IMG/VR virus record: IMGVR_UViG_3300035703_000003
Strand: one strand, 5' to 3'
Length of the DNA: 64,000 nt
From: a virus
Taxonomy: Duplodnaviria; Heunggongvirae; Uroviricota; Caudoviricetes
Shown here: one piece after another, positions 1 through 45,040 of the stretch
How the letters are laid out: each line of letters opens with the position of its first letter
Position numbering within the stretch: the first letter of the stretch is position 1
Notes under the pieces: generated by a model
The model's input: only the letters and a program-made list of their open reading frames with translations
What the model was told of the DNA's origin: nothing
The model's database searches: none
Translations under genes and position numbers: made by a program

Positions 1-411
1 CGTAGTATACTAGCTGATCCTCGTGGTCCAGATGTTAAAGACAGAGTAAACAGTATTAAGCACAGAGAAGCGTTTAGACCATTTGCACCGATGATACTAG
101 AAGAAGACGTTAGTGACTATTTTGAAATGCCTGTTGACAGTAGTCCTTATATGCAGTATATTGCTAGATGCAAATATCCAGAACTCTTTCCAGCTATTAT
201 ACATTATGATGGAACAAGTCGTGTTCAAACCGTAGGATTAACCGATTGTCCTGATGTCAGATCGTTGTTACTTGAATGGAAAGCAAGAACAGGATGTCCA
301 ATGCTTTTAAATACTAGCCTTAACATTAAAGGAGAGCCTTTAGTTAACAGTAGTGCCGATGCAGAGCGTTGGACTGAAAAATACGGAGTAAAGGTATGTT
401 TACCAAAATAA
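1..411 (+). CDS. Carbamoyltransferase (NodU/CmcH/TobZ family), C-terminal part, 5'-truncated by the window
   Basis: Frame is open from base 1: RSILADPR...KHREAFRPFAP...HYDGTSRVQTV...LLNTSLNIKGEP, typical of the C-terminal domain. Confidence 0.92.
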   Translation, partial: RSILADPRGPDVKDRVNSIKHREAFRPFAPMILEEDVSDYFEMPVDSSPYMQYIARCKYPELFPAIIHYDGTSRVQTVGLTDCPDVRSLLLEWKARTGCPMLLNTSLNIKGEPLVNSSADAERWTEKYGVKVCLPK

Positions 412-512
412 TCAATTTTATACTTTATCCTTGGCGTGCTTATCAAGAGAAGAAGCGTTTAAAAAAACGTTTAGAAGAATTGCGTAAACGTGATCCTTTC
501 ATTTACGAGTAA
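396..512 (+). CDS. 38-aa small basic protein, not in the ORF track
   Basis: MFTKIINFILYPWRAYQEKKRLKKRLEELRKRDPFIYE; GGAG upstream; fills the gap between neighbours. Confidence 0.65.
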   Translation: MFTKIINFILYPWRAYQEKKRLKKRLEELRKRDPFIYE

Positions 513-523
513 GAGGACAATTT

Positions 524-1237
524 ATGTTAGATGTAATTCAAATTAGTTATTACGAAGAAACTGCTGACGAAAATTTTGAATTTTTAAAATTGTTTGCACC
601 TAACGCAAAGCGTGTTCAGGGTGTTAAAGGCATTTTTAATGCACACAGAGCTGCCGCAGAAATAGCCGAAACAAGTCATTTCTACGTAATCGATGCAGAC
701 GCAATAATCGAAGAAGACTTTAAATTTAGTTTTAGACCGGACGCACGTAAATTGGAATACGGGCACCACCCCGAAACCGAATGTGTTTATGTATGGCGCA
801 GTCGTAATCCTGTAAACGATTTAGTGTATGGGTACGGTGGAGCAAAATTGTTTCCACGCAGAGAATTGTTAAAAGCCAAAAAATGGAACGTTGATATGAC
901 AACTACAATTGGGTGTCCGTTTGTTCCTAAATTCCAAATTAGTAATATTACTGCATTTAATACTAATACGTTTGAAACATGGAAAAGTGCATTTAGAGAA
1001 TGTGCAAAGCTAGCAAGTAGTATTATTCCAAACGGTGATAATATCGACAACGAGTATCGTTTAGATATATGGTGCAGTCGTGGTAAAGATAGACCTTACG
1101 GTGAATATTGCATGATGGGCGCAAATCAAGGCAGAGAGTTCGGGACATACTATCGTAACGACATTAAATCTCTAAAGAAAATCAATGATTTTGATTGGTT
1201 ACGTAATCAATTTGAAAAAACAGTTGGTGAAGAATAA
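524..1237 (+). CDS. Glycosyltransferase-like (GT-A fold) protein
   Basis: DxD motif (VIDADA), GVKGI..AH and YGYGGAKL; GAGG RBS. Confidence 0.6.
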   Translation: MLDVIQISYYEETADENFEFLKLFAPNAKRVQGVKGIFNAHRAAAEIAETSHFYVIDADAIIEEDFKFSFRPDARKLEYGHHPETECVYVWRSRNPVNDLVYGYGGAKLFPRRELLKAKKWNVDMTTTIGCPFVPKFQISNITAFNTNTFETWKSAFRECAKLASSIIPNGDNIDNEYRLDIWCSRGKDRPYGEYCMMGANQGREFGTYYRNDIKSLKKINDFDWLRNQFEKTVGEE

Positions 1238-1238
1238 C

Positions 1239-2096
1239 ATGTCAAACTACGAATTTCCACTAAAAACCCACGAGATATTAGATCGTTACGAATTGTTGTA
1301 TTTAGATAACGATTTAATAGCTGATTTCAGACGATCATATATCGATCATGATTTAAACAGCATATTTCGTATTGTCAACGACGATAATAAAGACGATTTG
1401 CGTAAACTTATCATTGAAAACAATACGTGGAAATTATGGTCTTTGCTAGATCAATTTGTCAACACTCAATTCACATCTGCGTTTAAAAGTTTTTTTGTTA
1501 ACAATATTACATTTGATAAAGATTGTTTTAGTCGTGGTCAACTGCGAAGTAAACTATGGTTAGTAGATGAAATAAAAAAACTGGATTTAGATCTAGGAAC
1601 AGTGTTTCTGTGTGCAGGGTGGTACGGCACATTATCAGTGATGATGTTTGAGAGCGGAATAAAAATTGACAAAATTCGTAGTTTTGACATTGATCCTTTG
1701 ACAGTTGACGTAGCAGAAACATTTAATAAGCCCTGGGTAATGCAAGATTGGAAATTTAAAGCAACTGTTGAAGATATCTTAGATATAGATTACGAAAAAC
1801 ATTGCTACAGTGTACTACGTTCAGATAAAACGGCATGTGAGTTAAATGATTCGCCTGACACTATTGTCAATACTAGTTGCGAGCATCTAATAGATTTCGA
1901 CGGGTGGTATAATAAAATACCCGTCGGCAAGCTAGTAATAATCCAAGCCAATAACTATCACGAAGTTGAAGAGCATGTTAATACATATAATACTTTAAAA
2001 GATTTTAGTAAAAGCGCACCCATGACAACTGTTTTGTATAAAGGTGTTTTAGAGTTACCTAAATATACGAGATTTATGAAAATTGGATTTAAATAG
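1239..2096 (+). CDS. SAM-dependent methyltransferase-like protein
   Basis: VFLCAGWYG, RSFDIDP and IVNTSCEH Rossmann-type motifs; start moved to ATG 1239. Confidence 0.6.
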   Translation: MSNYEFPLKTHEILDRYELLYLDNDLIADFRRSYIDHDLNSIFRIVNDDNKDDLRKLIIENNTWKLWSLLDQFVNTQFTSAFKSFFVNNITFDKDCFSRGQLRSKLWLVDEIKKLDLDLGTVFLCAGWYGTLSVMMFESGIKIDKIRSFDIDPLTVDVAETFNKPWVMQDWKFKATVEDILDIDYEKHCYSVLRSDKTACELNDSPDTIVNTSCEHLIDFDGWYNKIPVGKLVIIQANNYHEVEEHVNTYNTLKDFSKSAPMTTVLYKGVLELPKYTRFMKIGFK

Positions 2097-2322
2097 TCTG
2101 TCACTTCGACAATTACAAACAGAAGCAGCAAGAGCAATATCCTGCATTTCTGCTACTAATAACAACATATACAAGTTTAATAAAATAGCACACCATAACA
2201 GTCAAAATTGGTATCGTGCAATTATAGAATGGTATATACAAGAATACGGCGGACTGCCTAGCGCAGTCGGTCCTGGTAAAGAAGTGACACTTCTATTAGA
2301 AAAAAGCAATAATAATGTTTGA
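2083..2322 (+). CDS. Hypothetical protein (79 aa)
   Basis: TTG start; overlaps both neighbours. Confidence 0.6.
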   Translation: MDLNSLSLRQLQTEAARAISCISATNNNIYKFNKIAHHNSQNWYRAIIEWYIQEYGGLPSAVGPGKEVTLLLEKSNNNV

Positions 2323-3397
2323 TTATAAAGATATACGTATGGTTCACTTAGAAGTCACACAGCGGTGTCAAGCAGCGTGTCCGATGTGTGATCGTAACGA
2401 AAATGGCGGGCCAGACAACAAACATATCACAAACGCAGAACTTAGCTTAGAGGATTGTAAACGCATCTTTACACCCGAGTTTATTGCACAGCTTGATACT
2501 ATGTACATGTGCGGTAACTTAGGCGACCCGATTATCGCAAAAGATACATTAGAAATATTCAGTTATTTTAGGCAACACAATCCAAAAATGTGGCTAAGTA
2601 TGAATACAAACGCCGGTGCAAAGGATGTAGAGTGGTGGAGAAAATTGGCAGTAGTAATCGATCGCAAAGGCTCGGTTATTTTTAGTGTCGACGGGTTAGA
2701 GGATACAAATCACTTATATCGACAAAATGTTGTTTGGGATAATATTAAGCGGAATATGCAAGCATTTATTGCAGCAGGAGGCAGGGCTCGTTGGGATTAT
2801 ATTGTGTTTCAACATAATGAACATCAAGTTGAACAAGCAGAAGCACTAGCAAAGGAATGGGGCGTTGAAAAGTTTATCAAGAAAAAAACAGGTCGTTTCA
2901 TTACAGCGCATAGCATTAGTAAAGATGCACATCAGGCTCAAAATAGAAAAGGTGAGAAAACTGCAGTTATTGCAAAACCAGTTAATAAAGAAAATCAAAA
3001 TCTCGCACTTCTTAAACAAGCAGAGATCGAAAAATCTTACGGGTCTATGCGAGAGTATTACGATACTTGTAAAATAAAATGTAAGGCAATCGATAAAAAA
3101 GAAATATTCATTACAGCAGAAGGATTATTAATGCCGTGCTGTTGGACTGGCGGTCGTATGTATAAGTGGTGGCATAAAGACTATCGTGTAGAACAAATTT
3201 GGGATCACATTGATACTGCAGGCGGCAAAGACGCTATTAACGTTATAAACAATAGCATAGAATCTGTAGTAAGCGGGATGTTGTTAAGCAGCATCGAGGA
3301 TAGTTGGTCAAGGTTAAGTCTTAAGGACGGTAAGTTAGGAGTATGTGCAATGAAATGCGGGGAAGAATTCGATCCGTTTAATGCACAGTTTGCTTGA
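2315..3397 (+). CDS. Radical SAM protein with C-terminal Twitch/SPASM-like Cys cluster
   Basis: CQAACPMC, GNLGDP, FSVDG; C-terminal C...GLLMPCCW...CAMKCG. Confidence 0.9.
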   Translation: MFDYKDIRMVHLEVTQRCQAACPMCDRNENGGPDNKHITNAELSLEDCKRIFTPEFIAQLDTMYMCGNLGDPIIAKDTLEIFSYFRQHNPKMWLSMNTNAGAKDVEWWRKLAVVIDRKGSVIFSVDGLEDTNHLYRQNVVWDNIKRNMQAFIAAGGRARWDYIVFQHNEHQVEQAEALAKEWGVEKFIKKKTGRFITAHSISKDAHQAQNRKGEKTAVIAKPVNKENQNLALLKQAEIEKSYGSMREYYDTCKIKCKAIDKKEIFITAEGLLMPCCWTGGRMYKWWHKDYRVEQIWDHIDTAGGKDAINVINNSIESVVSGMLLSSIEDSWSRLSLKDGKLGVCAMKCGEEFDPFNAQFA

Positions 3398-3416
3398 ATG
3401 ATAAGGGAGAGCTTTA

Positions 3417-4109
3417 ATGGAAGATATTATAAAAATTATTGATGATTGCTTTGAAAATTATCAACCAATGGAATCTAAGGCAAATTTGATTTGTCAATAT
3501 TTAATTTTAAAAGAACACAACCCTAAGAATATAGTAGAAATAGGCACTGGCGCCGCTGGATGGGCGTTAACTATTAGCGATTTACTACAGAGAACAGATA
3601 TAAATTTTTTCTTGTTTGAAAATTTCGAAGAGACGCAGTATCAAAACCATGAATGGTGGCCGAAAAACAAAAAAGATCTGATGAATTATATATTAGTCAA
3701 GAATAAAAATTTTCAGTTTGATCTGTCTGAGAAGTACAGCAAGGTTGAAAAAATTGATGTTTTGCGATATGATGCATGGGGATTTTCTTGCCAAGATTTT
3801 GAAAATATTATTGAGGATTGTAACAAAAATTCTATAGTTTTTTTTGATGATTTTTCGTTCAACAAAGATCCGGATTTGGTAATCATGGTTCTAGAATTAT
3901 TCGAAAAAAATTTAATATATCCTATATGGGCTTCGGAAAATTCTAGCTGCTGGTCACCGAGTAAGGATTACAGTTACTATATGATCGATTTTCTAAAACA
4001 AAAACAAAGTTTAATAAAACAATTTACACAGTGTGATTGTTGTTATAAACAATACAACGTTTCGGATTTACAATTTGAAATGATTCAAACAAAAAACTGT
4101 AGTAAATAA
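3417..4109 (+). CDS. Putative class I methyltransferase-like protein
   Basis: IVEIGTGAAG and VFFDD; GGAG RBS. Confidence 0.45.
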   Translation: MEDIIKIIDDCFENYQPMESKANLICQYLILKEHNPKNIVEIGTGAAGWALTISDLLQRTDINFFLFENFEETQYQNHEWWPKNKKDLMNYILVKNKNFQFDLSEKYSKVEKIDVLRYDAWGFSCQDFENIIEDCNKNSIVFFDDFSFNKDPDLVIMVLELFEKNLIYPIWASENSSCWSPSKDYSYYMIDFLKQKQSLIKQFTQCDCCYKQYNVSDLQFEMIQTKNCSK

Positions 4110-4151
4110 TATATTAAAGATAATAATGAAATTTAAAATGTTGCTATTTAA

Positions 4152-5066
4152 ATGGTAGATAGAATTACATTAAATAAACCATGGAAAAAGTTAGTCTGGG
4201 TAACAACTACAGTATGCAATTACTCATGCAGTTATTGTTCACCTGACCTTCACGATGGAAAATACCGCTGGGTTAAGAATTATGATAATGTAATACGATT
4301 TATTAACACTTATAGAAATAATTCTCCGTTGATTGTAGACCTGATGGGCGGCGAACCAACTTTATGGCCAAAATTTGAATCTTTTTGTAAAGATATATGC
4401 ACCCATCCAGAAAAAACTTCTGTGCAATTCACTAGCAACGGATCACGCACTGTTAGATACTGGGAAAACTTTAGTGCTCCGGTTGATACGTTAGGATTTA
4501 GTTTTCATCCTGAGTTTGCTAACGAAGATCATTATTTTAACATACTTAAAGTTTTACACAATAAGTATAACGTAAAGGTGTTTTTAATGATGCCACCACA
4601 ATATTATAGCAAAATAAAACAGTTCTATCACAGAATCGAAAACAGTGATTTAAATATCGATGTTGCTATTAAATTGATTAAAAATCATAACGGCAGCGGA
4701 TTAGTATGCGGTTATAATAACGAACACAAACACTTTTCAATGAATCGTTTGAATAGATCTAAGGTAGATTATATAGATGATTTACAACCATTATACAATA
4801 ATAAAACTTTTATTCCGCAAGATTTAGTTAACAGCGGAAAAGATAAATTCAACGGATGGAATTGCAATATAGGTATAGACAGAGTTTCAATAAAATCAAA
4901 TGGTGATGTATATGGCTCTACATGTTATATAACTCCCCCATATGGTAATATATACACTGATACTGATATTGTATTACCAACCGAGCCCACTATTTGTACT
5001 AGAGAGTATTGCGGTTGCGGAGCCGATGTTGCGATATCGAAAGAAGAAAATGTACGCCCGAATTGA
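4152..5066 (+). CDS. Radical SAM protein, short subfamily B
   Basis: CNYSCSYC, GGEPTLW; C-terminal CNIG...GDVYGSTC...C....CGC. Confidence 0.9.
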   Translation: MVDRITLNKPWKKLVWVTTTVCNYSCSYCSPDLHDGKYRWVKNYDNVIRFINTYRNNSPLIVDLMGGEPTLWPKFESFCKDICTHPEKTSVQFTSNGSRTVRYWENFSAPVDTLGFSFHPEFANEDHYFNILKVLHNKYNVKVFLMMPPQYYSKIKQFYHRIENSDLNIDVAIKLIKNHNGSGLVCGYNNEHKHFSMNRLNRSKVDYIDDLQPLYNNKTFIPQDLVNSGKDKFNGWNCNIGIDRVSIKSNGDVYGSTCYITPPYGNIYTDTDIVLPTEPTICTREYCGCGADVAISKEENVRPN

Positions 5067-5475
5067 TTTAACTAAAACAAATTATGCTGTAATTCAAAAT
5101 AGTAAAGTGCTAACAACTGCGCCTGTTGTCGAGTTGCAGCAGATATATAAAGAGTATTGCAATTATAAAAAATTTAAAAGCATTATGCCTATTTTTAATA
5201 GCGAGTTCACTGACAGTAAGAATGATGTAATAGGTTATTATGACGATCGATCCCTGGTAGGATTTAGTTTATTAAGACGCTACGACGATGAAAATGTAGA
5301 AGCAATACAGTTTGCTTGGGATTATAAAAATCCTAAATTAAGACTAGGTATTAGCAGTTTAAAAAGCGAATGCGCTCATTATAAAGAACTAGGGTTTAAG
5401 TATTTGTATTTGGGTGGCGCCGACGAATATAAAAGTAAAATAGATGGGTTTGAAATATTAGGCCCGGTATTATAA
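5050..5475 (+). CDS. GNAT-fold protein resembling the C-terminal domain of Arg/Leu-tRNA-protein transferases (ATE/Bpt)
   Basis: LVGFS...FAWDY..PKLRLG..SL..E....KELGFKYLYLG; start moved to ATG 5050. Confidence 0.6.
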   Translation: MYARIDLTKTNYAVIQNSKVLTTAPVVELQQIYKEYCNYKKFKSIMPIFNSEFTDSKNDVIGYYDDRSLVGFSLLRRYDDENVEAIQFAWDYKNPKLRLGISSLKSECAHYKELGFKYLYLGGADEYKSKIDGFEILGPVL

Positions 5476-5484
5476 GGAATGTAA

Positions 5485-5814
5485 ATGAACTATTATCATA
5501 TATGGGCTAATCCCTCAGAGGGCGTAGAAGCTAAAGACTTTGCATTAAAGATGCGTAAGTTCTTAGATCAACTAGTGTCAATGGGACGTATGCATTCGTA
5601 TAAACTTACACGAATGAAACTAGGATTCAGAAGCATTGACTTACCAGAGTTTCATGTTATAATGGAATTTAAAAATATGCAACAGTTGGACGATGCTATG
5701 ACTGCAGTATTAGAAGACGAGCAAAACATCGAATCAGTCCATGTTGCATTTAATCAATTAGTAGATGGTGAAACTATTCATCATGCGTTATATAGAGACT
5801 ATCCAGATGAGTAA
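5485..5814 (+). CDS. DUF6614-like small alpha/beta protein
   Basis: YHIW...TRMKLG...EFHVIMEF..MQQLDDA...H pattern. Confidence 0.55.
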   Translation: MNYYHIWANPSEGVEAKDFALKMRKFLDQLVSMGRMHSYKLTRMKLGFRSIDLPEFHVIMEFKNMQQLDDAMTAVLEDEQNIESVHVAFNQLVDGETIHHALYRDYPDE

Positions 5815-6991
5815 TATAAACAGTTGGGATGAATTTCAACCACTAGAAGAATTGTTAGTAGGTAGTGTATACGATAGTAGCTTCTTCGATGATGTTAAAA
5901 ATGTTAAAATACGTGATGCATTAAAAAAGATTGTAGACGAAACAAACGAAGACCTTGAGCATTTTAAATCTACACTGTCGCAACACAATATAAAAATATA
6001 TCAAGCAAGTCCAACTGAATTGGGCTACAAAAAGAGTATATTAGAATACGTTAACGAAAAGGGCGAGCTCGGTTATAAACGTAACGTGGGCGGGTCGTTC
6101 TTCACAACAGGTGTTAGTGCTAGCTTAATTCCTAACCCTCCACTGCAGCCCAGAGACGATAGTATCATTATGGGCAACAAGATTATTGTTACTGACCCTA
6201 ACACTTATGCTATTAAAGCACTGCTACCTAAGTTTGAAGAATGGTTTGGTAAAGAAAACATTGATACGTCAATGAAGGATGAACAAGTTCAATTGCCTCG
6301 CAGCGACAAGAACTTAAAGAATTACTTAACACGTAACAGCATCGAACCTACAGAAGAAAACTTAGAAGCAGCAAGAGCAACAGAAACGCTAGGCGGCTTT
6401 TGCAGTCCTACACTAACACGGTTAGGAAAAACATGTTTTGTTGATACTTGGCAAGTGCCTACTGTAGTAGAAGATTTCCTGAGTGTTAAGGTTCCGGAGT
6501 TTGAATATAAGAAGATTACTATTGGCGGTCACAATGATTCTATCTTTAGTGTTATTAAACCAGGACTTGTAGTTGCAACAAGAGAACTAGAACCATACAA
6601 ACATATTTTTAAAGGTTGGGAAATAATTTGGTTTGACGATCCTAACTGGGGCCATGTTAGACATTGGCTAGACCTACGTGCCAAGAATCGTGGCAAGTGG
6701 TGGGTCCCAGGTGAGGAAGAAAACGACGAGTTTACATTCTTTGTTGAGAAGTTTCTCGGCAACTGGACAGGCATGGCTGAAGAAACTATATTTGATGTTA
6801 ACTGTTTAGTTATAGACGACAAGCATGTTGTAGTTAACACAGATAATCCTTATCTAATAGATAACTTAAAGCAGCGTGGTATGGAACCGATCGTATGCCC
6901 ATTGCGTCACAGCTTTTTCTGGGATGGTGGTTGGCATTGCTTAACACTTGATATTAAACGCAGAGGTGGACAAGTTGACTACGGAATTTGA
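5807..6991 (+). CDS. Amidinotransferase (glycine/inosamine-phosphate amidinotransferase family)
   Basis: NSWDEFQPLEE, PRDD, GHND, GGWHCLTLD; start ATG 5807. Confidence 0.85.
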   Translation: MSNINSWDEFQPLEELLVGSVYDSSFFDDVKNVKIRDALKKIVDETNEDLEHFKSTLSQHNIKIYQASPTELGYKKSILEYVNEKGELGYKRNVGGSFFTTGVSASLIPNPPLQPRDDSIIMGNKIIVTDPNTYAIKALLPKFEEWFGKENIDTSMKDEQVQLPRSDKNLKNYLTRNSIEPTEENLEAARATETLGGFCSPTLTRLGKTCFVDTWQVPTVVEDFLSVKVPEFEYKKITIGGHNDSIFSVIKPGLVVATRELEPYKHIFKGWEIIWFDDPNWGHVRHWLDLRAKNRGKWWVPGEEENDEFTFFVEKFLGNWTGMAEETIFDVNCLVIDDKHVVVNTDNPYLIDNLKQRGMEPIVCPLRHSFFWDGGWHCLTLDIKRRGGQVDYGI

Positions 6992-7454
6992 AACATATAT
7001 GAGTGAGTGGATACTAAATGATCTATCTGCTCCAGTTGTGATGCTAAACAACTTTTCTAAATGTCCATATGCTAAAACAGCATATCTGGAAAACAAAGTA
7101 AAGTTTTACGAAATAGCTAATACTAACGAAATACATACGCTTGTAGCTAATTGGGACGAACTATTAGATGTTGGTGTTATTCGTTTGCCTGATAGTGTAA
7201 ACAAAGATAATATAACAACATTGGTAGATAGCTTAAATGATTTGTATATGTCAGAAGACTTTATATTTTTAGATGACCATATTGATAATGAAGAACGTAT
7301 GGGTGATATTGTTTTTAACAACGGCAAGTATAATGTTTTATTTCTGCAAAGAAAAAGCAAATTAGATATTGCAGCAAAGAAATTAGAAAAGCTCGGTTAC
7401 TATAATAATTGGACAGAAGAATATTATAAGGAGGTAGTGAGTTGGAGGGTATAA
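6975..7454 (+). CDS. DUF1415-like hypothetical protein
   Basis: CPYAK motif; TTG start after GAGG. Confidence 0.5.
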   Translation: MTTEFETYMSEWILNDLSAPVVMLNNFSKCPYAKTAYLENKVKFYEIANTNEIHTLVANWDELLDVGVIRLPDSVNKDNITTLVDSLNDLYMSEDFIFLDDHIDNEERMGDIVFNNGKYNVLFLQRKSKLDIAAKKLEKLGYYNNWTEEYYKEVVSWRV

Positions 7455-8302
7455 CTTATGCGACAACCGTTAAAGTAAACGGCAAGAAATACTACATAAA
7501 TGATGTAGTATACAACACACCCTACGGAAAAGTATCTATCAATACAGAAGCAGTAAATGTGGGTATTTTTTTAAGTGGCGGGATGGATAGTGCAGTTTTA
7601 CTATATTTAGTTGCTAAAACATTCTCAGAAAGAAATATAACAACATCAATACAGCCCGTAACAGTCAGACGTGGCAATCCAACAGGGTTTAAATATTACG
7701 ATAGAGTCGATATATACCCGTATGCTAATAGAATTATAAAATATGTAAGAGATGCATTTCCGAATGTTACAATATATGATACTATCAAAGAAGACGCAAA
7801 TTATTGGTGGATAACAACAGTTGATCCCGAAGGTGGTCACAAAGGTAGTTATACTACTACACAGACTAACCTTTCTAATTTTCTAACATGGAAATATGCC
7901 GATGATCATCTTATTGAAAAGTTAGCCGAACAAAACATGGAACCGCAGCAAGGAATTGACACGCTTTATTGCGAATATAACGGTGTCACTAAAAACCCTC
8001 CCGAGGATGCGGATGTTCCACTGAGCGAAGAAAGTCATAGAGATCATGTTCGTAACTACGTAGATGGATTTGCTACTGTAGTAGATTATGGTAAATTTCA
8101 CAGGTATTATGAACCAATTAGAAACGCTGATAAGCGAATCACAATGTGGTTAGCACACGAACTAAATATTTTAGAAGATTTTCTAGATATTACAAGAAGT
8201 TGTGAAGGCGGTCCTGTTGAAACAGAAAACTTTACCACAGAGTGTATGAAGTGTTGGTGGTGTTTAGAACGACATTGGGCATTAGAAAATTATAATAAAT
8301 GA
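7442..8302 (+). CDS. QueC-like PP-loop ATP pyrophosphatase (paralogue 1)
   Basis: SGGMDS; TRSCE...CMKCWWCLER. Confidence 0.8.
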   Translation: MEGITYATTVKVNGKKYYINDVVYNTPYGKVSINTEAVNVGIFLSGGMDSAVLLYLVAKTFSERNITTSIQPVTVRRGNPTGFKYYDRVDIYPYANRIIKYVRDAFPNVTIYDTIKEDANYWWITTVDPEGGHKGSYTTTQTNLSNFLTWKYADDHLIEKLAEQNMEPQQGIDTLYCEYNGVTKNPPEDADVPLSEESHRDHVRNYVDGFATVVDYGKFHRYYEPIRNADKRITMWLAHELNILEDFLDITRSCEGGPVETENFTTECMKCWWCLERHWALENYNK

Positions 8303-35862: not shown

Positions 35863-35987
35863 GAATTGAATCTACATAAATATCATAATATAATAATTAT
35901 ATTGTAATAGAATGTGCAGTACTTCAAATTTTGAACAAACATTCTAAATTACTTTACACAATTTTCAAAAGGTTTCATGAAATATGA
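35863..35987 (+). pseudogene. Relic of the PLP-gene 3' end (repeat copy B, core 35906..35971)
   Basis: Translates NRMCSTSN/LNKHSKLLYTIFKRFHEI* with one frameshift, versus NRMCISSELNKRSKLLYKIFKRFG*; its TGA overlaps ATG 35984. Confidence 0.8.
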
Positions 35988-36568: not shown

Positions 36569-37032
36569 TTTTTAAGGATGAGAATATTGTATTATTTGAT
36601 TACACGTTTGATATTGAAAAGTTAAGAACTGAATTTAATAATTTTAAAGATAAGTTAGAAACTTATGAAGATCCTAGATATTCAGTTCCGAATTTTAAAG
36701 TAGCAAGACATATAACTTTTGATTATGCACAAGAGTTGTGTGAATTGTTCAACATAACAGCTCGACCTAGATTTTATACTGTTGCTCCAAATAGTGAATT
36801 AGAACAACACCTGGATCACGGAACATTATGTAGTATTAACATACTACTGTCAGAAAACACTGCTCCTGTAAACTTTCAAGGTAAAGAGTACATGTATAAA
36901 CAATGTTTACTTAATACACAAAAGATGCACGGAGTTATTAACGGTCCGCACGAACGAATACTTTTTAAACTTAGTATTTTCAATGAAGATTTTGAAACAG
37001 TTGCAGAAAAAATTAAAAAAGTAGTTATATGA
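36565..37032 (+). CDS. 2OG-Fe(II) oxygenase-like protein
   Basis: HLD...INI...HGV...R. Confidence 0.6.
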   Translation: MIFKDENIVLFDYTFDIEKLRTEFNNFKDKLETYEDPRYSVPNFKVARHITFDYAQELCELFNITARPRFYTVAPNSELEQHLDHGTLCSINILLSENTAPVNFQGKEYMYKQCLLNTQKMHGVINGPHERILFKLSIFNEDFETVAEKIKKVVI

Positions 37033-38792
37033 AAAATATTTTAATGACTAGCTTTATAAGCAAGCGACTGAGCGCAAGAGAACCAGATATACACTGGTTA
37101 CCACATAGTGTTGGTTGTTTAATAAGTTATGCTAAAAAAAATAATTTTATAAATTCTGCATATAATTTTTATACTCCGGTGTACATACCGGATGAATACG
37201 ACACATACATGTCTATAATGTTAACCACAGATATATTATGTATGACCAATTATGTTTGGAATCAAAAATATAATGATGGGTTTGCTAAATTGTTTAAGTC
37301 TGTAAACCCCAATGGCATTGTGGTATACGGAGGTGCTAATGTACCCGAACATAAAGATTATGCACAGCTTTATGCAGCAGAACGACCTTACGTTGACTTA
37401 TTTTTTGTAGGTCCTGGCGAAATGACATTAAGCAACTTTCTAAAAAACATTAACGCACCAATGAACTCGAATGACGGGACATTCGGAATTGGGTTTAATA
37501 ACGTAAACTTAGATAAAAGTTCATATCTTATACCAGAAAATGAAATACCAAATCCTTATTTAGACGGTATTTTTGATGAAGTGTTTAATAATATCGAAAA
37601 GAAAAAAATAGGAATTACGTTTGAAATGACACGTGGTTGCCCGTTTAGGTGTAGTTTTTGTGATTGGGGCGGACTAAGTCGCAGCAATGTTAGTAAGATA
37701 CAAACTGAAGAAGTTTTAAAAACAGTGGACTGGATATATCAACACGGAGATAAAATTGCTATCGTTGATATCATTGATGCAAACTTGGGAATGATTAAAC
37801 GGGATTTAGAAGTATTACAATACTTTGAAGAATGCCAAAATAAAACCGGTCATAAAATTAAAGTCACAGTTAACGGATTTGTTAAAAACGGCAGTCCTTA
37901 CCTTAAAGACACTATTCTAACATTAAACAGAATTACAGGATACAGTAAAAATGTTATGTTGAGTTTTCAAACACACAGTAAAGAAGCATTATCTGTTATC
38001 GACAGAGACAACATACGTAACGAAAAATTATATCCATTGATAAAAGAATTGCAAGCAGATGGGTTATCGATTAAAAGTGAAATGATATTAGGTCTTCCTG
38101 GCGAAACATTAAACAGTTATATTAATAATTTAGAAACAGATTATAATTTGGGTATAACAAGTATGCGGTCATATCCTTTAATCTTTATTGTCAATACTCC
38201 TATGTATGATACTAACTATAGATTAAAACATGGTTTAAAAACTAAAAAAATATTACTTCCATATGATTTATTTGTTACAAAAGAGCAGTATTTAACTGAT
38301 GTGAATAAGAAAACAACTTGTGATTTTGAAGATGAGTCAGAATATGAAGAAGTGGAAATTTTGTACGAGTGTAACAGTTTCACAAATGACGAGTTAATAC
38401 AGATTTTAAAAAGATGGTGGTGGTATCATAATTTTTATAATCTCGGAACAATCAAATCTGAGATTAAGCAGTTAAATGATAGCGGAGTTACTATATCTCA
38501 ACAAATAGCAATGTTTTTTGAATTGATAGACAGTGGTAAAATGCCAGCCATTTCTAAAATTCTAAACATATACGAAAATGCAGTTAGGGAAATATATTAC
38601 CCCGAATCAGTTAGTAAAATAAAAAATGTCAATTCGGTTCATTTTTTTCAAAAAGGTATGAGAACATATGAACCTGCGTATTTCATTGACAACATGTCAG
38701 CAGTGAAGTCTGAATTAGAACAAATCTATACTCGTGTTAATACAGTGGGTTGGAATGATAGATTTGCAGTAATGTTGGATAATACAATATGA
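37029..38792 (+). CDS. Cobalamin-binding radical SAM protein
   Basis: YVWN, YGGA, GPGE; TRGCPFRCSFCDW; DAN; GLPGET. Confidence 0.88.
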   Translation: MKNILMTSFISKRLSAREPDIHWLPHSVGCLISYAKKNNFINSAYNFYTPVYIPDEYDTYMSIMLTTDILCMTNYVWNQKYNDGFAKLFKSVNPNGIVVYGGANVPEHKDYAQLYAAERPYVDLFFVGPGEMTLSNFLKNINAPMNSNDGTFGIGFNNVNLDKSSYLIPENEIPNPYLDGIFDEVFNNIEKKKIGITFEMTRGCPFRCSFCDWGGLSRSNVSKIQTEEVLKTVDWIYQHGDKIAIVDIIDANLGMIKRDLEVLQYFEECQNKTGHKIKVTVNGFVKNGSPYLKDTILTLNRITGYSKNVMLSFQTHSKEALSVIDRDNIRNEKLYPLIKELQADGLSIKSEMILGLPGETLNSYINNLETDYNLGITSMRSYPLIFIVNTPMYDTNYRLKHGLKTKKILLPYDLFVTKEQYLTDVNKKTTCDFEDESEYEEVEILYECNSFTNDELIQILKRWWWYHNFYNLGTIKSEIKQLNDSGVTISQQIAMFFELIDSGKMPAISKILNIYENAVREIYYPESVSKIKNVNSVHFFQKGMRTYEPAYFIDNMSAVKSELEQIYTRVNTVGWNDRFAVMLDNTI

Positions 38793-39379
38793 GTAGTAAA
38801 CATCTATTTCCAAGAGTAGATTATAAGCCACTGGATTTAGAATATCAAAATAGTCCCCCCACATATCCATTATGGGAACGAATCATATACTATATAAAAA
38901 AACACAATTCAATAAACTTAGTTGATATGGGCTGCTCAACTGGCGCAGTAAATCAATTTTTAACAAACTACACATATAATTACTATGGCATAGATAAATC
39001 GCAATATTTAATCGACGACGCTATAAACCGATGGGGCAACGAACATATCAAATTTGAATGCAACGATTGGAATACAACTAACACTGTAGTTAATTGTGAT
39101 TGTTTGTTGTTGTTAGGTGTGTTACCATACGGGTTAGCCGAATATAGATATAGTGAAAACATAAGCCCATGGAATATCTATAACAAACTAATTGAACGAT
39201 ACAACCCGACACAAATTATTATCAGAGAGACTTGCAAAATACAAAATGATGCAGAGATAGATTTAGAAACTGTTGACTTAACACCATTTTTAGAAATCGC
39301 AACAGATGTGGAATACATTAATGTAGATACAATATTAGGAAACAAGGTATTAATAAATGTTACCCGTGAAAGAACTTAG
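38789..39379 (+). CDS. Class I SAM-dependent methyltransferase
   Basis: VDMGCSTG, YGIDKS. Confidence 0.75.
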   Translation: MSSKHLFPRVDYKPLDLEYQNSPPTYPLWERIIYYIKKHNSINLVDMGCSTGAVNQFLTNYTYNYYGIDKSQYLIDDAINRWGNEHIKFECNDWNTTNTVVNCDCLLLLGVLPYGLAEYRYSENISPWNIYNKLIERYNPTQIIIRETCKIQNDAEIDLETVDLTPFLEIATDVEYINVDTILGNKVLINVTRERT

Positions 39380-39956
39380 TATAAAATTTAGTAATAATGA
39401 AATATCTGCATTATTGGATTTTTATCCAATTCTAGCTAATTACGACAACAACCATCCTTCGATTAAAGTCAAAGGTCCTGCAGATAAAATACCCGGAATA
39501 ATATTTGACTTTACTAAACTAGATAATCCAATATCTTTGCTATTAACAGATATTAAAGGCAGATACCCGTTTTTATGTAATACATGCAGCTATATTATCA
39601 CTGATAATGTGATACCTAGGTTTAATTTGCATAGTCACACCGATAGTCATTGCCATTTGCTATGTGTATTAGAAAGTGACAATACAGCAACGACACATTG
39701 GTATAAGATATCTAAAGCACCGGGGCACTTTAAAAAGTCAGAGTTAATCGGAATAGTTCCACACCCCGACGGCGAAGTTATACATTGGCACACCGATACA
39801 TTGTTACAAGGCAATACGTATTTGTTCGATAGTCATACATTTCATAGTGTAGAGAATTTAAATAAAAACCGACGGATTGTGTTTACTTGGTGGCTAGAAC
39901 ACATTGCGTATCAACCGGCGTATGAATATTATGAGCAACACAACTTTTTCGTTTGA
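39357..39956 (+). CDS. 2OG-Fe(II) oxygenase-like protein
   Basis: HTD...FDSHTFHSVEN...R. Confidence 0.6.
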   Translation: MLPVKELSIKFSNNEISALLDFYPILANYDNNHPSIKVKGPADKIPGIIFDFTKLDNPISLLLTDIKGRYPFLCNTCSYIITDNVIPRFNLHSHTDSHCHLLCVLESDNTATTHWYKISKAPGHFKKSELIGIVPHPDGEVIHWHTDTLLQGNTYLFDSHTFHSVENLNKNRRIVFTWWLEHIAYQPAYEYYEQHNFFV

Positions 39957-40914
39957 TAAGAAAAATCTCAGAAATAAAGCTGAACTTATTATAGGGCTTA
40001 GTAATTGGTGTAACTATGACTGCAGTTATTGTATGCCTCACAGCAAAAGTAGGACAAGTAAGTTAGATAACACTACTGCAATTATTAAAATCATACATGA
40101 TAGCTTCGAACATTTTAAAAAATATGCAGAAGTCGATAATTATGGAGTTTTATTCGTCGGTGGCGAACCTACAATTCATCCAGAATTTAATAAAATAATC
40201 GACAGCATACAAGACATACGGATTATTGAGCCAAATTATAAAATCATTATAGTCACTAACTTAAGTAGAACAGAACGCTGGCTTAAAGATATAAGCAGTA
40301 AAGTAACAGGCATTGTTGCAAGCTATCATGACGAGTTTGCACTAATAGATGAGTTTACAGGAAAAATCGAAACGTGTATGCGTAACAATCCTGATTTGCA
40401 TATCACCATTGGCATACAGCCATTACCTGGTAGATTAGAAAAATTAGAAAATGATTGCTATATTATGCGTAATAAATTAGTTGCAGCGTTAGGCAAAGCA
40501 CATACAGATGCTAAACTGGATTTTATAATACAGCATTTGTATAAAGGTATGGACGAATTGTATCCCTATAGCGATCATGATTTTCGTATGTTTAAACAGC
40601 TTATAGCAGAATTTAGCAATCCACATATTGACATGTCAGACAGACTAAGCGAACAAGAAGATTTCCTGGTCCATAGCTTTACAGATAAAAAAGATGAGTT
40701 CTTGGGATCGAAGTGCTATGCCGGTATAGAAGGACTGACAGTTGGATTCAACGGCACGCTGCAGCGCACAAGTAGGTGTGCCTTAAATAATGAACAAAAA
40801 TATCTAGGAAATATATACACAGAGTATACACTACCAAAAGACCCTGCAGTATGCGATGTTCCGACTGGCTGCGGTAATTGCTGGTTTGATTATAGTTTTA
40901 GGAAAATAAAATGA
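39931..40914 (+). CDS. Radical SAM protein, subfamily B
   Basis: CNYDCSYC; GGEPTIH; CYAG...C...C....CGNC. Confidence 0.9.
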   Translation: MSNTTFSFDKKNLRNKAELIIGLSNWCNYDCSYCMPHSKSRTSKLDNTTAIIKIIHDSFEHFKKYAEVDNYGVLFVGGEPTIHPEFNKIIDSIQDIRIIEPNYKIIIVTNLSRTERWLKDISSKVTGIVASYHDEFALIDEFTGKIETCMRNNPDLHITIGIQPLPGRLEKLENDCYIMRNKLVAALGKAHTDAKLDFIIQHLYKGMDELYPYSDHDFRMFKQLIAEFSNPHIDMSDRLSEQEDFLVHSFTDKKDEFLGSKCYAGIEGLTVGFNGTLQRTSRCALNNEQKYLGNIYTEYTLPKDPAVCDVPTGCGNCWFDYSFRKIK

Positions 40915-41438
40915 ATGATTTTTACACACTATTTGATCCTTCACACATAGATTATAACACACAAAGTATTATTGACTTGTGTGATTATTATACTGCAAAT
41001 GCATTATGGGATGATATATATCCAGGTGTACACTTAAACAGTAAACGTTATAGTGAGGATTTTTTAAATACTGATGCTAAAATAATAATTGATAGCTTTC
41101 ATCCTGATTTAAACATATCATATAAACAAGCACAATTATTTCAAATGAATCCAGGGCAACAGGGTATTCTTCACAAAGACACAGATAGATCTGCAGGTAT
41201 ACTCTTTCCTGTAACTCCAATTGGTGATAACTTTTCTCCTATTATGTTTTACAACGAACAAAAAGAACTAGTTGAATCTTTAAACTACAGCCGTAATGCA
41301 ATTATACTAAATGTGTTAAATTATCACAATGTGGAATATACTAATAGTGTTAGAGTTAATTTTCAGATCGATTTTCATATACCTTATAACGAAGTAGTGG
41401 ATCTTTATAATCGAGGAAAATTATTTAAAGAACAGTAA
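40911..41438 (+). CDS. 2OG-Fe(II) oxygenase-like protein
   Basis: HKD...HNV...RVNFQ. Confidence 0.6.
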   Translation: MNDFYTLFDPSHIDYNTQSIIDLCDYYTANALWDDIYPGVHLNSKRYSEDFLNTDAKIIIDSFHPDLNISYKQAQLFQMNPGQQGILHKDTDRSAGILFPVTPIGDNFSPIMFYNEQKELVESLNYSRNAIILNVLNYHNVEYTNSVRVNFQIDFHIPYNEVVDLYNRGKLFKEQ

Positions 41439-41447
41439 ATAATAATA

Positions 41448-42005
41448 ATGCACAACAATTATTTTAATCACGTAGACATTTCGGCTCTGGGTATCAGTTT
41501 AACTGACTTGCGTAAAGAGCATGAACAATTTGAATTTAATGTGTTGAGATTCGAACAAGATGCTGATGTTGCTGATTGGTTTAATCTACAAACAACATGG
41601 TGGGTAGCTGCAGTACACGACCTATCTTCTGCGCCGTTAATCAAAAAGATAGTGACAACACTAGAGAGTGTGTTAGATACACCATTTCTAATAGATAACG
41701 CATTGAGAGACACTATAGGTGTCCGCTTTTACTTGCAAAAGCAAGGAGCAGGTCTAATAGAGCACCAAGATTACCCTGAGAGCAGTGTTGCGTTAAATTT
41801 TACATTCGACGATAATGTTGCTCCACTGAGCTTTAGTGAAATAGGTGATGTTTATTATCGTTGTTGCTTGTTTAATGTGTCACATTTTCATTATGTTAAA
41901 CCTAGTCCGTTAGATAGGCTTATGCTTAGGATAACACCAATGAATTCTAACTATCAGGATGTATGTGATAAATTTGCATCTGCTGGATTAATTCAACAAC
42001 CGTAA
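41448..42005 (+). CDS. 2OG-Fe(II) oxygenase-like protein
   Basis: HQD...ALNF...HYV...RLML. Confidence 0.6.
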   Translation: MHNNYFNHVDISALGISLTDLRKEHEQFEFNVLRFEQDADVADWFNLQTTWWVAAVHDLSSAPLIKKIVTTLESVLDTPFLIDNALRDTIGVRFYLQKQGAGLIEHQDYPESSVALNFTFDDNVAPLSFSEIGDVYYRCCLFNVSHFHYVKPSPLDRLMLRITPMNSNYQDVCDKFASAGLIQQP

Positions 42006-42464
42006 TACCCACTGTTCTCCAGCGTCATTGGGTAATACTTCTTTTTTAATTATCCAGTTATACTTTGAGTACTTTACGAAATGTTGAAAAAGATTAGGAC
42101 TCTCTTCTCTACTAACCCATATGTTAGTATAGCCTAAGTTAAATGCGTATGCAGTGCTAGCATCTAATGTTCGGACACCCCTTTTCAGATCAGCTACCCA
42201 ACCACCAAAGTCATAATTTCGAGATCGGGTGTGTCTGCTCATAATGCGGATACTACCATTGTATTCCGGACGTTCGATTCCTGCGCTATAGTAAATCAGT
42301 TCAGACAATTCAGTATCCCACGCCATTCTAGAAAACTTGGTGTATTCAAATAGTGGGTTCTTTATATAATTGTCAGCATGTTTGTGGTCTGCGTTCTGTG
42401 CAAACAACGTTTTAATATCTGATATATGCGGTTCGATCGGTCCTAAGTACCACTTAAATCTCAT
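41988..42464 (-). CDS. GNAT-like hypothetical protein
   Basis: YSAG.ERP....IRIMSR and IWVSRE, shared with 31895..32494. Confidence 0.45.
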   Translation of the reverse strand: MRFKWYLGPIEPHISDIKTLFAQNADHKHADNYIKNPLFEYTKFSRMAWDTELSELIYYSAGIERPEYNGSIRIMSRHTRSRNYDFGGWVADLKRGVRTLDASTAYAFNLGYTNIWVSREESPNLFQHFVKYSKYNWIIKKEVLPNDAGEQWVLRLLN

Positions 42465-42474
42465 TTATATTATC

Positions 42475-43080
42475 CTAGACACTTGACTTATAAAAATAAT
42501 CTTTCGCTAACATAGGATCCCAGCCATGGCCAGCACATACTAATGCCACAGACCATCTAACTGTGTTATTGGGATTTATAGCATTGTGTATTCTTTGATT
42601 GTTAATAATTGTAGGTCTAGATAACTCTATGCTGTCGGTTACAGTTAGATCGTCGCTATTGACATCCCATACAGTTCTTTGTTCACCTAAACTATTTGTG
42701 TAAGTTTTTAATACAGGTGGAGTTGACGAAACATAAAACTCCAGTCTGGTATTTTTTGTATTTTTTATCGGAAATAATATAGCCCACGGATTATCTGAAT
42801 TATCTATGTGTGGGCGGGTACTTTCGTTTTCAGTAATACAATTAACCATAAATTTTGTATCCAATGGCAACTGTAACTTTTCTCTGAATTTAGTTATGTT
42901 AGTTAGATTGTTGAATGGATTAGTTGAATCCAAACTCCCAAAAAAATGAACAGTGTTTTCTTCGATAAAAATATTTTCAAAAATTGTTGTTTCTAACTCT
43001 TTATGCAATTCGTCAAAATTATCAATTTCTAACTCATAATAGTTTTCATATTCATCGAAATTCTTATCTCTATAGTCCAT
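42475..43080 (-). CDS. 2OG-Fe(II) oxygenase-like protein
   Basis: PHID...ILFP...HNAIN...RWS. Confidence 0.6.
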   Translation of the reverse strand: MDYRDKNFDEYENYYELEIDNFDELHKELETTIFENIFIEENTVHFFGSLDSTNPFNNLTNITKFREKLQLPLDTKFMVNCITENESTRPHIDNSDNPWAILFPIKNTKNTRLEFYVSSTPPVLKTYTNSLGEQRTVWDVNSDDLTVTDSIELSRPTIINNQRIHNAINPNNTVRWSVALVCAGHGWDPMLAKDYFYKSSV

Positions 43081-43690
43081 AATTTTCTATGTCCTCGTGA
43101 CCGTCCAAACTAAACATCAATGCAATTCGAGGCTGATCGCTCATGTTAGCAACTGCGTGTGGATATGCAATATTGAGGAAGTATGCACGACCGTCTTGTA
43201 AATTGTATGCTTCCAGTTTATCATCTCTTTTAAATAAGTTTACAACATTGTCTCCTCCATATATAGGACATATGCAACGTACTGCATAACTTACATCATA
43301 ATCTACATGAAAAGGAATCATCTTACCTGGGGCAAGTTTAGTGATACGTACACGACTAGCAGTAGCCTTAAGCTGAGTAACAACCTGTTCAAAGTAACTG
43401 CCGGTATATTCAGGAGTAGGAACATTATACAAGTGTTCTTCTCGTCTACGCAGTCTTTCCTTGATACTTGCTTCGTAAGGTAAAATTTCACTAGGTGTTG
43501 TTAAATTGATTTGTTCAAAATTGTCGTAAACGTTTTTGACAAGTTCCATATGATTATCGCACAGCATAGGATTAGCAGTTCGAACATCTACAAACTTTTC
43601 CGCAATCTTATTAAATTCTTCTCGTAATCTAGCCAAGTCGATGTCTAAACCTAAGTCAGCAATAGATGGTAACTGATGTTTCTTTTTCAT
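43070..43690 (-). CDS. Asp/Asn beta-hydroxylase-like 2OG oxygenase
   Basis: RVRITKL.PG..IPFHVD...HAVAN...RIALM. Confidence 0.8.
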   Translation of the reverse strand: MKKKHQLPSIADLGLDIDLARLREEFNKIAEKFVDVRTANPMLCDNHMELVKNVYDNFEQINLTTPSEILPYEASIKERLRRREEHLYNVPTPEYTGSYFEQVVTQLKATASRVRITKLAPGKMIPFHVDYDVSYAVRCICPIYGGDNVVNLFKRDDKLEAYNLQDGRAYFLNIAYPHAVANMSDQPRIALMFSLDGHEDIENYGL

Positions 43691-44463
43691 TTATAAACTC
43701 CTGCAAGACATATTCTTGCTACGTCTTTGTATCTTCTGAACTTCTTATACTCGTCTTGCGTAGTGCAAGCAAGCCATACACTATCGCTGGGTGTAAATCC
43801 TAGCGCATCGCATACTCTTTTTTGTTTGTCGGTCAATGTATTATATACATAGTCTATATCAAATTTACTTATAATAGTTTCTGCAATATTATGTGCAAAG
43901 TAGTTATAGTATTTTGCACTGTATATTAACGACTCGAGTTTTGAGTCGGGATTACGACTGAAATACCAACCAGTTCTGATATTACCGATCCCAAAACTTT
44001 TGCTTAAACTATAAAAAGCATATTCAACATTATTACTTATTTCAATTGGTTTGACTCTAGTACTGCCCACATATGCGAGGTCTAGTGCCACAGGAACATC
44101 AGTTCTAACATCTGCAAAGTTCCCGTCTATTGCACTAGGAACGCTTTGATAAAACATATAAGACGAACTACTTTTAGTTTCGATCCATTGGTAGTCACCT
44201 GTGTTCATTTGAACACCACGTGTTTCTCTGTTATACCACCAGTTCAGACCTTCTGTTATTCCGTTCATTGGATACACAGAAAACCCAGATAGATCGACTA
44301 CGGGTTTAAGCCAATCAATGATACTTGTTTTGTAGTGCTGTACTGAATCATATGTAGGTATCAGCCCCTCTATGCTATTTTTAACATCAGGCAGAGTAAA
44401 CGTTCTAACCGCTAGGCTTTGATTTAATAAAAACTCTTTCAATTGTCCATCCTGCAATATCAA
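43687..44463 (-). CDS. Short PLP-dependent enzyme
   Basis: NGITEGL, LDLAY, SLSKSFG...RTG. Confidence 0.7.
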   Translation of the reverse strand: MILQDGQLKEFLLNQSLAVRTFTLPDVKNSIEGLIPTYDSVQHYKTSIIDWLKPVVDLSGFSVYPMNGITEGLNWWYNRETRGVQMNTGDYQWIETKSSSSYMFYQSVPSAIDGNFADVRTDVPVALDLAYVGSTRVKPIEISNNVEYAFYSLSKSFGIGNIRTGWYFSRNPDSKLESLIYSAKYYNYFAHNIAETIISKFDIDYVYNTLTDKQKRVCDALGFTPSDSVWLACTTQDEYKKFRRYKDVARICLAGVYK

Positions 44464-45040
44464 ATTTATTTAACCTGTACGCCATTGGGTGATTATGATG
44501 ATATCTGTGCCAGCCTTCGCCTGGTGCAATAATATTCATAAATGGAACATCTAAAGGCTTGCCATCCTTATGCGCTAACCAATTAAGTAAACCGAATCCG
44601 ATCCACGAAAGCACAAATGGCATAACAACAAAAATTATGAAAAAATCAATACCTAACAACAGCATAGCAGCAGCATATGTGAAATGGATGTGTTTTCTAT
44701 ATCTATGAAAGAATACTACCCGTGGGTTCTTTAGTAAGTCCACAATATATTTTTTAGGAATATATTCTACATGCCATCTGCTAGTGATAACACGCCATAT
44801 GCCCACGTATACGGGGCTGTGTGGGTCGTCTACGGTATCTGACTTTGCATGATGCATACGATGTACTGCAGCCCATGTAAGGGCACTACGCCCGCCGCAT
44901 ATTGTTCCAAAGAATAGCATAACATACTCTAAGAATACACTTGTCTTAAAACTGCGATGAGTAAAGTATCGATGGTATCCTATGCTGATACCAATGAGTG
45001 CTGCAAAGTAATAAAATAGATAACCGTGAAGTAATATCAT
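44405..45040 (-). CDS. Membrane fatty acid desaturase
   Basis: HRYFTH, HRMHH, GEGWHRYHH. Confidence 0.9.
   Translation of the reverse strand: MILLHGYLFYYFAALIGISIGYHRYFTHRSFKTSVFLEYVMLFFGTICGGRSALTWAAVHRMHHAKSDTVDDPHSPVYVGIWRVITSRWHVEYIPKKYIVDLLKNPRVVFFHRYRKHIHFTYAAAMLLLGIDFFIIFVVMPFVLSWIGFGLLNWLAHKDGKPLDVPFMNIIAPGEGWHRYHHNHPMAYRLNKFDIAGWTIERVFIKSKPSG

Follow-up and report, generated by a model that had tools for sequence, protein, structure and literature searches.

A radical SAM-rich island behind the virion operon of aquatic jumbo phages, best explained as an expandable glycosylation and tailoring locus

The 64,000-nucleotide stretch of viral DNA analysed here (IMG/VR record IMGVR_UViG_3300035703_000003, hereafter the window) carries at positions 1-45040 an island of tailoring-enzyme genes that a preliminary description, made from the sequence alone, had singled out as a possible undescribed system for modifying macromolecules. 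Our best explanation of the island is that, in an aquatic jumbo-phage lineage, an expandable locus for glycosylation and tailoring has been attached behind the last genes of the baseplate/tail operon. To the more specific proposition that this locus makes a tailored glycan carried by virion proteins, while add-on cassettes may have other substrates, we give about an even chance. It builds on observed enzyme folds, a fixed linkage to the virion operon, gene fusions, enzyme solubility and selection, and it proposes all of the substrates.

The window covers only part of the island. Walking through contigs of the same population (99.5-100% identical) carried the island about 32 kb to the left of base 1, where its start had previously been placed, so that 1-45040 is the right-hand 45 kb of a complete island of about 77 kb, which lies between the baseplate/tail module and thyA and contains 25 genes for CxxxCxxC, or radical S-adenosylmethionine (SAM), proteins. 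The head of the island encodes, in order, a 115-amino-acid (aa) protein with a DUF4376-like lead, two proteins of 290-300 aa whose profiles are like those of glycogenin/GT8 (E 7e-7 and 3e-3; for the first, the fold agrees), a 335-aa protein, and a 330-aa paralogue of o2, the core glycosyltransferase (GT)-like protein of the window (524-1237, + strand). Searches with o2 among solved sequences, whether as a single sequence or as a profile, returned nothing, and the protein was identified by folding only: its AlphaFold2 model (pLDDT 88) has a GT-A fold, with Foldseek/VIA matches to WrtF, SunS and B4GALNT1 (Z 11.5). DxD-type motifs are invariant in the island GTs, of both the GT-A and the GT8 folds. 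The absence of a scaffold synthase noted in the preliminary description is therefore largely a window-edge effect, because three of the four GTs of the full island lie outside the window, and these four enzymes are most likely the scaffold builders. Longer forms of o2 (440-655 aa; L126, L149, L153, L157 and L161) have N-terminal extensions and a DxD in the last domain only. The left part of the island also holds two nucleotidyltransferase-like genes and HAD phosphatase, kinase-like, GDSL-like and pyridoxal phosphate (PLP) enzyme genes, and the nucleotidyltransferase/HAD genes are flanked by four proteins of similar type and 350-385 aa (L260, 735-2930 and 6663-7820; L266, 4848-5990), one of which has a weak DUF7796 match.

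The position of the head relative to virion genes is constant. The window GT was used to fetch 80 loci, of which 43 have the GT8 pair; the order 115-aa protein, GT8, GT8, GT-A is kept in 37 of these, structural-module genes lie upstream in all 20 GT8-pair loci that have enough upstream DNA, and in every locus checked the core points the same way as the end of the virion operon. In the phage population of the window the head sits directly behind a 305-aa and a 427-aa gene. The upstream genes match virion/baseplate proteins of Pseudomonas phage PA5oct, and the C-terminal half of the 305-aa gene product is 57% identical to a PA5oct virion protein confirmed by mass spectrometry (MS). The cultured lytic Ralstonia phage RsoM2USA is the only carrier of the core among 50,697 phage records, and its open reading frames (ORFs) 354-347, which constitute a minimal core, lie directly behind the MS-confirmed virion ORFs 361, 359 and 356 (PMC8504454). 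A late-type motif, ATAAATA, is conserved at the head (115-aa) gene in three sister phages and also precedes the RsoM2USA virion genes. Elsewhere in RsoM2USA (L083, 27287-41010), there are about 17 tandem ORFs of about 200 aa, many of which start with MKLxEI as a common N-terminal tag.

Besides the head, the core has a second GT-A enzyme, a methyltransferase and a small set of conserved radical SAM enzymes, and soluble tailoring enzymes come and go around it by the dozen. In the window the core is represented by o2 (43.5% identical to RsoM2USA ORF348; dN/dS 0.02), the class-I methyltransferase-like o3 (1185-2096, +; Atlas lead to Methyltransf_31; 30% identical to RsoM2USA ORF347), and the radical SAM enzymes o5 (2315-3397, +), o13 (N-twitch; 8299-9699, +) and o31 (C-terminal-twitch; 26859-27971, +; 95% identical to its sister). 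The island is present in 19 of 21 long related contigs, each with 6-25 matches to the family NF033640, and across the lineage its size varies between some 6 genes and over 80. Minimal versions (L103 and L137) consist of GTs and one radical SAM gene, followed by a homologue of the window ORF at 46694-47356. Fusions in phage loci join GT, GT and methyltransferase, or a radical SAM enzyme and a QueC-like protein. The distal third of the window island (31895-45040) has no orthologues above 45% identity in sister G001, which has other genes there instead, and it is thus doubtful that the island is one single system. Some sister islands contain solute-transporter genes absent from the window, namely betaine-type ABC components, a sodium:solute symporter and a TTT-like pair (G001, L081, 3543-5455; G022, L249, 972-2432; G004, L252). 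The relative G012 carries IscA-, NifU-, IscU- and ferredoxin-like genes, as read from its sequence (96553-99272 and 148790-155652; L256 and L259); it is plausible that these Fe-S genes supply the radical SAM array.

The RNase H of the window is 58% identical to that of PA5oct and 49% to that of Rak2, and its closer relatives are on IMG/VR contigs of uncultured origin, for which the estimated completeness points to genomes of about 350 kb; the source is an uncultured aquatic PA5oct/Rak2-like jumbo phage. The left end of the window was found in four independent assemblies, three of which match it at 99.5-100% over 5-8.5 kb (window 1-8561), and the island is collinear with two sister contigs, one of which continues into phage core genes. 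Thus, the island is neither cellular nor chimeric, and its phage origin stands. Its genes are intact, and sister orthologues have dN/dS values of 0.01-0.37, similar to those of core genes, as expected of functional genes under purifying selection. Judged from their description, the Moraphages (PMC12619734), which are Lak-related and have Bacteroidota hosts, look like a separate lineage. Matches in metagenome-assembled genomes (MAGs) labelled as taxa other than Bdellovibrionota were left out, as they look like mis-binned phage contigs; L167, L168, L169 and L223, which are in bacterial MAGs, have a low GC content, carry island or phage genes for the most part, and are probably mis-binned phage DNA.

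How might such a locus decorate a virion? On our best explanation, nucleotidyltransferase, HAD, kinase, short-chain dehydrogenase/reductase (SDR), PLP and twitch radical SAM enzymes would produce unusual nucleotide-sugars or cyclitols, and in the cytoplasm the four GTs would then assemble a short glycan with baseplate/tail proteins as its acceptors. The glycan would next be edited by carbamoyl-, amidino-, methyl- and acyltransferases, PP-loop ligases and Fe/2-oxoglutarate (2OG) hydroxylases, and the edited product may confer a strain-specific surface chemistry that could influence adsorption, stability or recognition. The solubility of the island enzymes fits a cytoplasmic acceptor; within the window island, several transmembrane segments are seen in the two desaturases and in no other protein. 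Some of the add-on cassettes (desaturases, HSS and the transporters of sister islands) are probably hitch-hikers with other substrates. Mycobacteriophage glycosyltransferases glycosylate structural proteins (Freeman et al. 2023, cited in PMC12619734), and by analogy with these phage-encoded, metal-dependent enzymes the core most likely works in this way. The mycobacteriophage system, as far as the citing passage describes it, has few transferases and no large tailoring array, and its acceptors are the C-termini of capsid and tail-tube proteins.

Several points weigh against a virion glycan. Gene neighbourhood is not function, and the baseplate/tail proteins are no more than candidate acceptors. 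PA5oct has the same structural module without the core, and the structural proteins encoded upstream have a Ser/Thr content that is raised only moderately, with no collagen repeats found. The late-promoter motif shows a small excess across the island (17 of 50 gaps in sense, versus 10 in antisense), and the head gene and o31 also carry sigma70-like promoters, the one upstream of o31 being conserved. In the case of o31, the divergent gap that precedes it (26810-26858) contains TTGACA-N16-TACAAT (TATAAT in G001) along with TAAATA motifs, and because of these sigma70-like boxes this core gene may have a host-type promoter. The GT-A fold is also common to nucleotidyltransferases, none of the radical SAM genes closely resembles that of a characterised sugar-modifying enzyme, and 25 radical SAM genes look like more than a single glycan would need. 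Since the island is probably composite, more than one explanation may be partly true.

Part of the core has relatives in predatory bacteria. Orthologues of o13 that are 50-58% identical occur in Bdellovibrionota, including complete chromosomes, and among 57 such loci o5 is present in 47, o31 in 46, the methyltransferase in 29 and the GT in 23; one locus fuses the GT to o13. The neighbours in these loci, read by eye, often look like GT2/membrane glycosyltransferases. The cassette is accessory in Bdellovibrionota, with the GT in 4 of 151 sampled genomes. The o13 clade of the window nests among bacterial rows near Bacteriovoracaceae, and approximately unbiased tests of the o13 tree gave borderline values both for a single phage clade (p 0.04) and for a single bacterial one (p 0.06). 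A bolder version of our explanation is that the island provides the tail or baseplate with an elaborate, strain-variable coat of glycans or glyco-conjugates, made with up to about 25 radical SAM enzymes, and that its core has been exchanged with predatory Bdellovibrionota. We advance this version only tentatively and think it may well be wrong; if it is true, a system that diversifies surface chemistry is common to two kinds of bacterial predator.

It is also worth asking whether the island acts on the host instead of the virion. GT8 enzymes often act in lipopolysaccharide (LPS) synthesis, a role proposed for a pelagimyophage cluster (PMC7029224), the Bdellovibrionota copies sit in cell-surface-type glycosylation loci, and the island has two membrane desaturases and some sigma70-like promoters, all of which would suit enzymes that work from the cytoplasm on the host envelope (LPS core, O-antigen precursors or lipids) and so prevent superinfection or change grazing. 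However, the island showed no flippase, no polymerase and no membrane-bound glycosyltransferase or acyltransferase, the core keeps its co-orientation with the virion operon, and it is retained in a soil Ralstonia phage as well as in aquatic phages of probably different hosts, so we regard this alternative as unlikely. A different proposal keeps phage proteins, virion or other, as the target and makes glycosylation one of several marks placed on their side chains by ribosomally synthesized and post-translationally modified peptide (RiPP)-like radical chemistry, hydroxylation, arginylation, amidination and QueC-type conjugation. The o13 profile, compared with solved structures, matches only SkfB, a peptide maturase (E 4e-5), the Asp/Asn beta-hydroxylase family is matched by two of the oxygenases, an ATE_C gene and a conserved 38-aa ORF are present, the best solved match of the QueC-like profile is Cap9, and enzymes of the QueC family are able to attach groups to protein N-termini (PMC13329287). 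These matches are all weak and at the level of the fold, though, the 38-aa ORF tracks the carbamoyltransferase and not the radical SAM genes, and a search of the gaps found no precursor family, leader peptide or peptidase; we judge direct protein modification to be quite unlikely. The least probable of the explanations we considered is that the island is a collection site for auxiliary metabolic genes that make diffusible small molecules, such as aminocyclitol-like compounds, polyamines, cofactors or immune-signal decoys, and that its linkage to tail genes is incidental. The HSS-like, nitroreductase, desaturase and SDR genes, the transporter-like genes of sister islands, and the inversion and swapping of cassettes are what such a site might contain or undergo, but the position and order of the head are fixed, the minimal versions (L103, L137 and RsoM2USA) keep only GTs and one radical SAM gene, and no exporter was seen in the window.

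Hypermodification of phage DNA bases was among the targets first suggested, and we now consider it very unlikely, while a macromolecular target in general is probably borne out. Carbamoyltransferases and PLP, radical SAM, 2OG, GNAT and glycosyltransferase enzymes, classes that the island contains, all occur in known base-hypermodification pathways, and the lineage has a TGT/DpdA-like gene and QueE, so a deazaguanine could in principle be elaborated further. The thymidylate synthase (TS) at the right boundary (45037-45942, - strand) is nonetheless canonical, with Asn at the dUMP-specificity position; it is the only TS-family gene beside the island, and no hydroxymethylase or TET partner was seen in the island. 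A second TS-family gene and a T4 glucosyltransferase were not found in the partial aquatic genomes (fragments 3-52% complete), nor was TET/JBP (PF12851), which accompanies a C5 methyltransferase beside the GT in TET/5mC hypermodification clusters, in five sisters, in a search run without a positive control. Dedicated modules exist elsewhere. In RsoM2USA an unannotated module (L245, 29-8443), next to topoisomerase genes on the circular map, includes an Asp-type TS-family/dCMP-hydroxymethylase-like gene (ORF10), a T4 beta-glucosyltransferase-like gene (ORF2) and a CofD-like gene (ORF1); these DNA-modification-like genes lie at 1-8 kb and the core at 216-222 kb, about 120 kb apart. Sister G023 has, just past the position of the right end of the window (L270, 2039-14386), a replisome-linked cluster of genes for a DNA polymerase, a clamp-sized protein, a 489-aa TGT/DpdA-like protein, a GT-B-like protein, folE, a Gfo/Idh/MocA oxidoreductase, an ornithine decarboxylase and a cytidylyltransferase, which from its gene content is a candidate for an extended deazaguanine modification. 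The TGT-like gene, which PF01702 did not detect, is assigned from a weak match to a 'TGT domain-containing protein' (E 8e-6) and from its context. PA5oct and Paride keep this TGT-like gene and QueE without the core. The 7-deazaguanine DNA modification is made by FolE, QueD, QueE, QueC and DpdA (PMC10516641), and the TGT-like, FolE and QueE genes of the lineage are outside the island, near the replisome; the QueE-like gene of the window (60621-61517, -) probably belongs to such a separate pathway. The PP-loop proteins of the island resemble the QueC family (PMC13329287) in their SGGxDS loop and, in four paralogues, a C-terminal Zn-type motif with Cys spacing longer than in canonical QueC. The motifs YxQxHxxE, VPxRN and YPDC, which were shown to be necessary for preQ0 synthesis by QueC (PMC13329287), are absent from all five. 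DNA modification thus appears to be handled by separate replisome-linked modules.

The island was initially called undescribed, which holds for its chemistry but not for its general kind, since tail-linked islands with GT8 and radical SAM genes have been published (PMC7029224) and a phage rich in radical SAM genes has been noted (PMC5332604). The host recognition cluster (HRC) of pelagimyophages and cyanomyophages averages 44.6 kb, is non-syntenic, lies beside tail genes and has GT8 (Zaragoza-Solas et al. 2020, PMC7029224). Like it, our island is large, non-syntenic and next to tail/baseplate genes, contains glycosyltransferases, notably GT8, and has diversified as radical SAM cassettes were gained and lost. 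The HRC contains receptor-binding tail fibre genes; upstream of our island, the genes match PA5oct virion/baseplate proteins. Unlike the HRC, it does not lie between vrlC and gp14 of a Tevenvirinae-like myophage but is bounded by a PA5oct-type structural module and thyA/o57, and it is larger (about 77 kb), dominated by its 25 radical SAM genes, and built on a fixed four-GT core that is partly common to Bdellovibrionota. The island resembles the HRC but is not a member of it by lineage or boundary genes. The marine T4-like genome TARA_ERS488813_N000010 has 12 radical SAM genes and Fe-S assembly helpers (Nishimura et al. 2017, PMC5332604). It resembles the island in its many radical SAM genes, and relative G012 likewise has IscA/IscU/NifU-like genes (by eye); unlike the island, it was read as Fe-S-related auxiliary metabolism with no tie to glycosyltransferases or tail genes. 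NF033640 (N_Twi_rSAM, NCBIfam) defines single proteins of unassigned function and not a system. In a scan of the N-twitch proteins o13, o20 and o24 at its cut-off of 170 bits, o13 (413 bits) and o20 (225 bits) are members and o24 (144 bits) falls below; the C-twitch and B12 types belong to other families.

We found no publication on the island of this lineage or on its Bdellovibrionota link. What is new here is how far the island extends, the presence of its four-GT head in one and the same phage, its separateness from the DNA-modification modules, and the occurrence of a minimal core in a cultured phage. The tail-linked islands described in aquatic phages have never been tested because the phages are uncultured; the reduction of a variable 77-kb island to a core of about 8 genes in cultured RsoM2USA makes the target of decoration directly testable. 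If the virion is that target, about one-fifth of a genome of about 350 kb is devoted to varying surface chemistry, and the abundant N-twitch family NF033640, which has no known reaction, gains its first substrate class.

The enzyme inventory drawn up for the window island was recovered. The 45 kb contain 53 ORFs of at least 60 aa, are 98% coding and lie almost entirely on the + strand, and 33 of 52 junctions overlap when the longest-ORF starts are taken, in agreement with the start/stop overlaps reported. All 16 CxxxCxxC ORFs were found again (mean 0.13 and maximum 2 in residue-shuffled controls; 0 of 38 in window ORFs to the right of the island), and motif position and similarity divide them into three groups: an N-terminal Cys-rich twitch domain marks 7, C-terminal Cys clusters mark 6, and the other 3 are of the B12 type. 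There is strong support for the five SGGxDS PP-loop ATPases, the two amidinotransferases, the carbamoyltransferase and the HSS-like gene, which has the saccharopine-dehydrogenase/HSS Pfam pair, and three fold-I proteins with SLSK account for the three PLP enzymes. The HxD...H motif counted for about ten oxygenases is present in 10 ORFs, but Pfam supports only 3, the others resting on motif or alignment, and the o19/o21 oxygenase profile gave chance-level matches only. Two His-box desaturases were found, one of them strongly supported; two SDRs, a GNAT-like pair (profile match E 0.018) and three methyltransferases are also there, with weak or motif-only support. No nonribosomal peptide synthetase, polyketide synthase (PKS) or exporter was seen in the window, as reported before. 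Overlooked earlier were a nitroreductase, an ATE_C aminoacyl-transferase-like gene, a DUF6614 gene and the conserved 38-aa ORF. NodU-type enzymes carbamoylate sugars, and the best solved match of the amidinotransferases is an inosamine-phosphate amidinotransferase and not SxtG; these analogies offer sugars and aminocyclitols as substrates, as leads only. A saxitoxin-like cluster, with which the enzyme classes overlap, was rejected because a PKS-like starter gene is lacking and the amidinotransferases have a better match than SxtG.

From the left, the window opens with the C-terminal part of a NodU/CmcH-type carbamoyltransferase (1-411, +; PF16861), truncated by the window start and complete in L260 at 503 aa. 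Its stop is overlapped by the uncalled 38-aa ORF (396-512, +), whose conserved C-terminus RKRDPFIY(E/D) reads RKRDPFIYE here; in 9 of 10 distinct copies this ORF is directly behind a carbamoyltransferase, and it is possible that it encodes an accessory peptide of that enzyme. It is reminiscent of the small DUF5989/SxtK partner of bacterial carbamoyltransferases, though it did not match the DUF5989 model. Beyond o2 and o3 lies o4, a conserved 79-aa protein (2083-2322, +), and beyond o5 a mobile four-gene cassette for the ATE_C aminoacyl-transferase-like protein, DUF6614, an amidinotransferase and a 168-aa protein (4942-7454, +), which is rearranged or inverted in G001 and L093. A QueC-fold PP-loop ATPase follows (7442-8302, +), with paralogues at 9696-10358, 13691-14488 and 27968-28606 and a more distant PP-loop protein at 33228-34538. 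The N-twitch enzyme o15 (10485-11879, +), for which a first genome scan found no relative, has further paralogues at 15231, 18492, 19744, 21575 and 22653. A PLP fold-I enzyme is encoded at 12750-13679 (+; paralogues at 30857-31678 and 43687-44463, the latter on the - strand), and a B12-dependent radical SAM enzyme at 17063-18499 (+; paralogues at 24382-25833, 52% identical, and 37029-38792). The nitroreductase-family gene (20931-21563, +) has ATAAATA 33 nucleotides upstream, relatives of o31 begin at 4152, 11863, 25826 (-) and 39904, and the second amidinotransferase is at 29153-30178 (+). The replaceable distal block (31895-45040) comprises two radical SAM enzymes, a methyltransferase, a PLP enzyme, the HSS-like gene, the GNAT-like pair, both desaturases, a PP-loop protein and seven HxD...H oxygenases.

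The phage genes to the right of the island are where they had been placed, with thyA at 45037-45942, rnh at 54839-55819 and tdk at 61895-62458. MetK, the SAM synthase (59193-60290, -), lies outside the island, and it is plausible that it supplies SAM to the island enzymes. A MoxR-like AAA ATPase, a vWA/metallopeptidase-like partner and an HD-domain gene, as read from the sequence, occupy 47935-51153 (-) and are kept in relatives.

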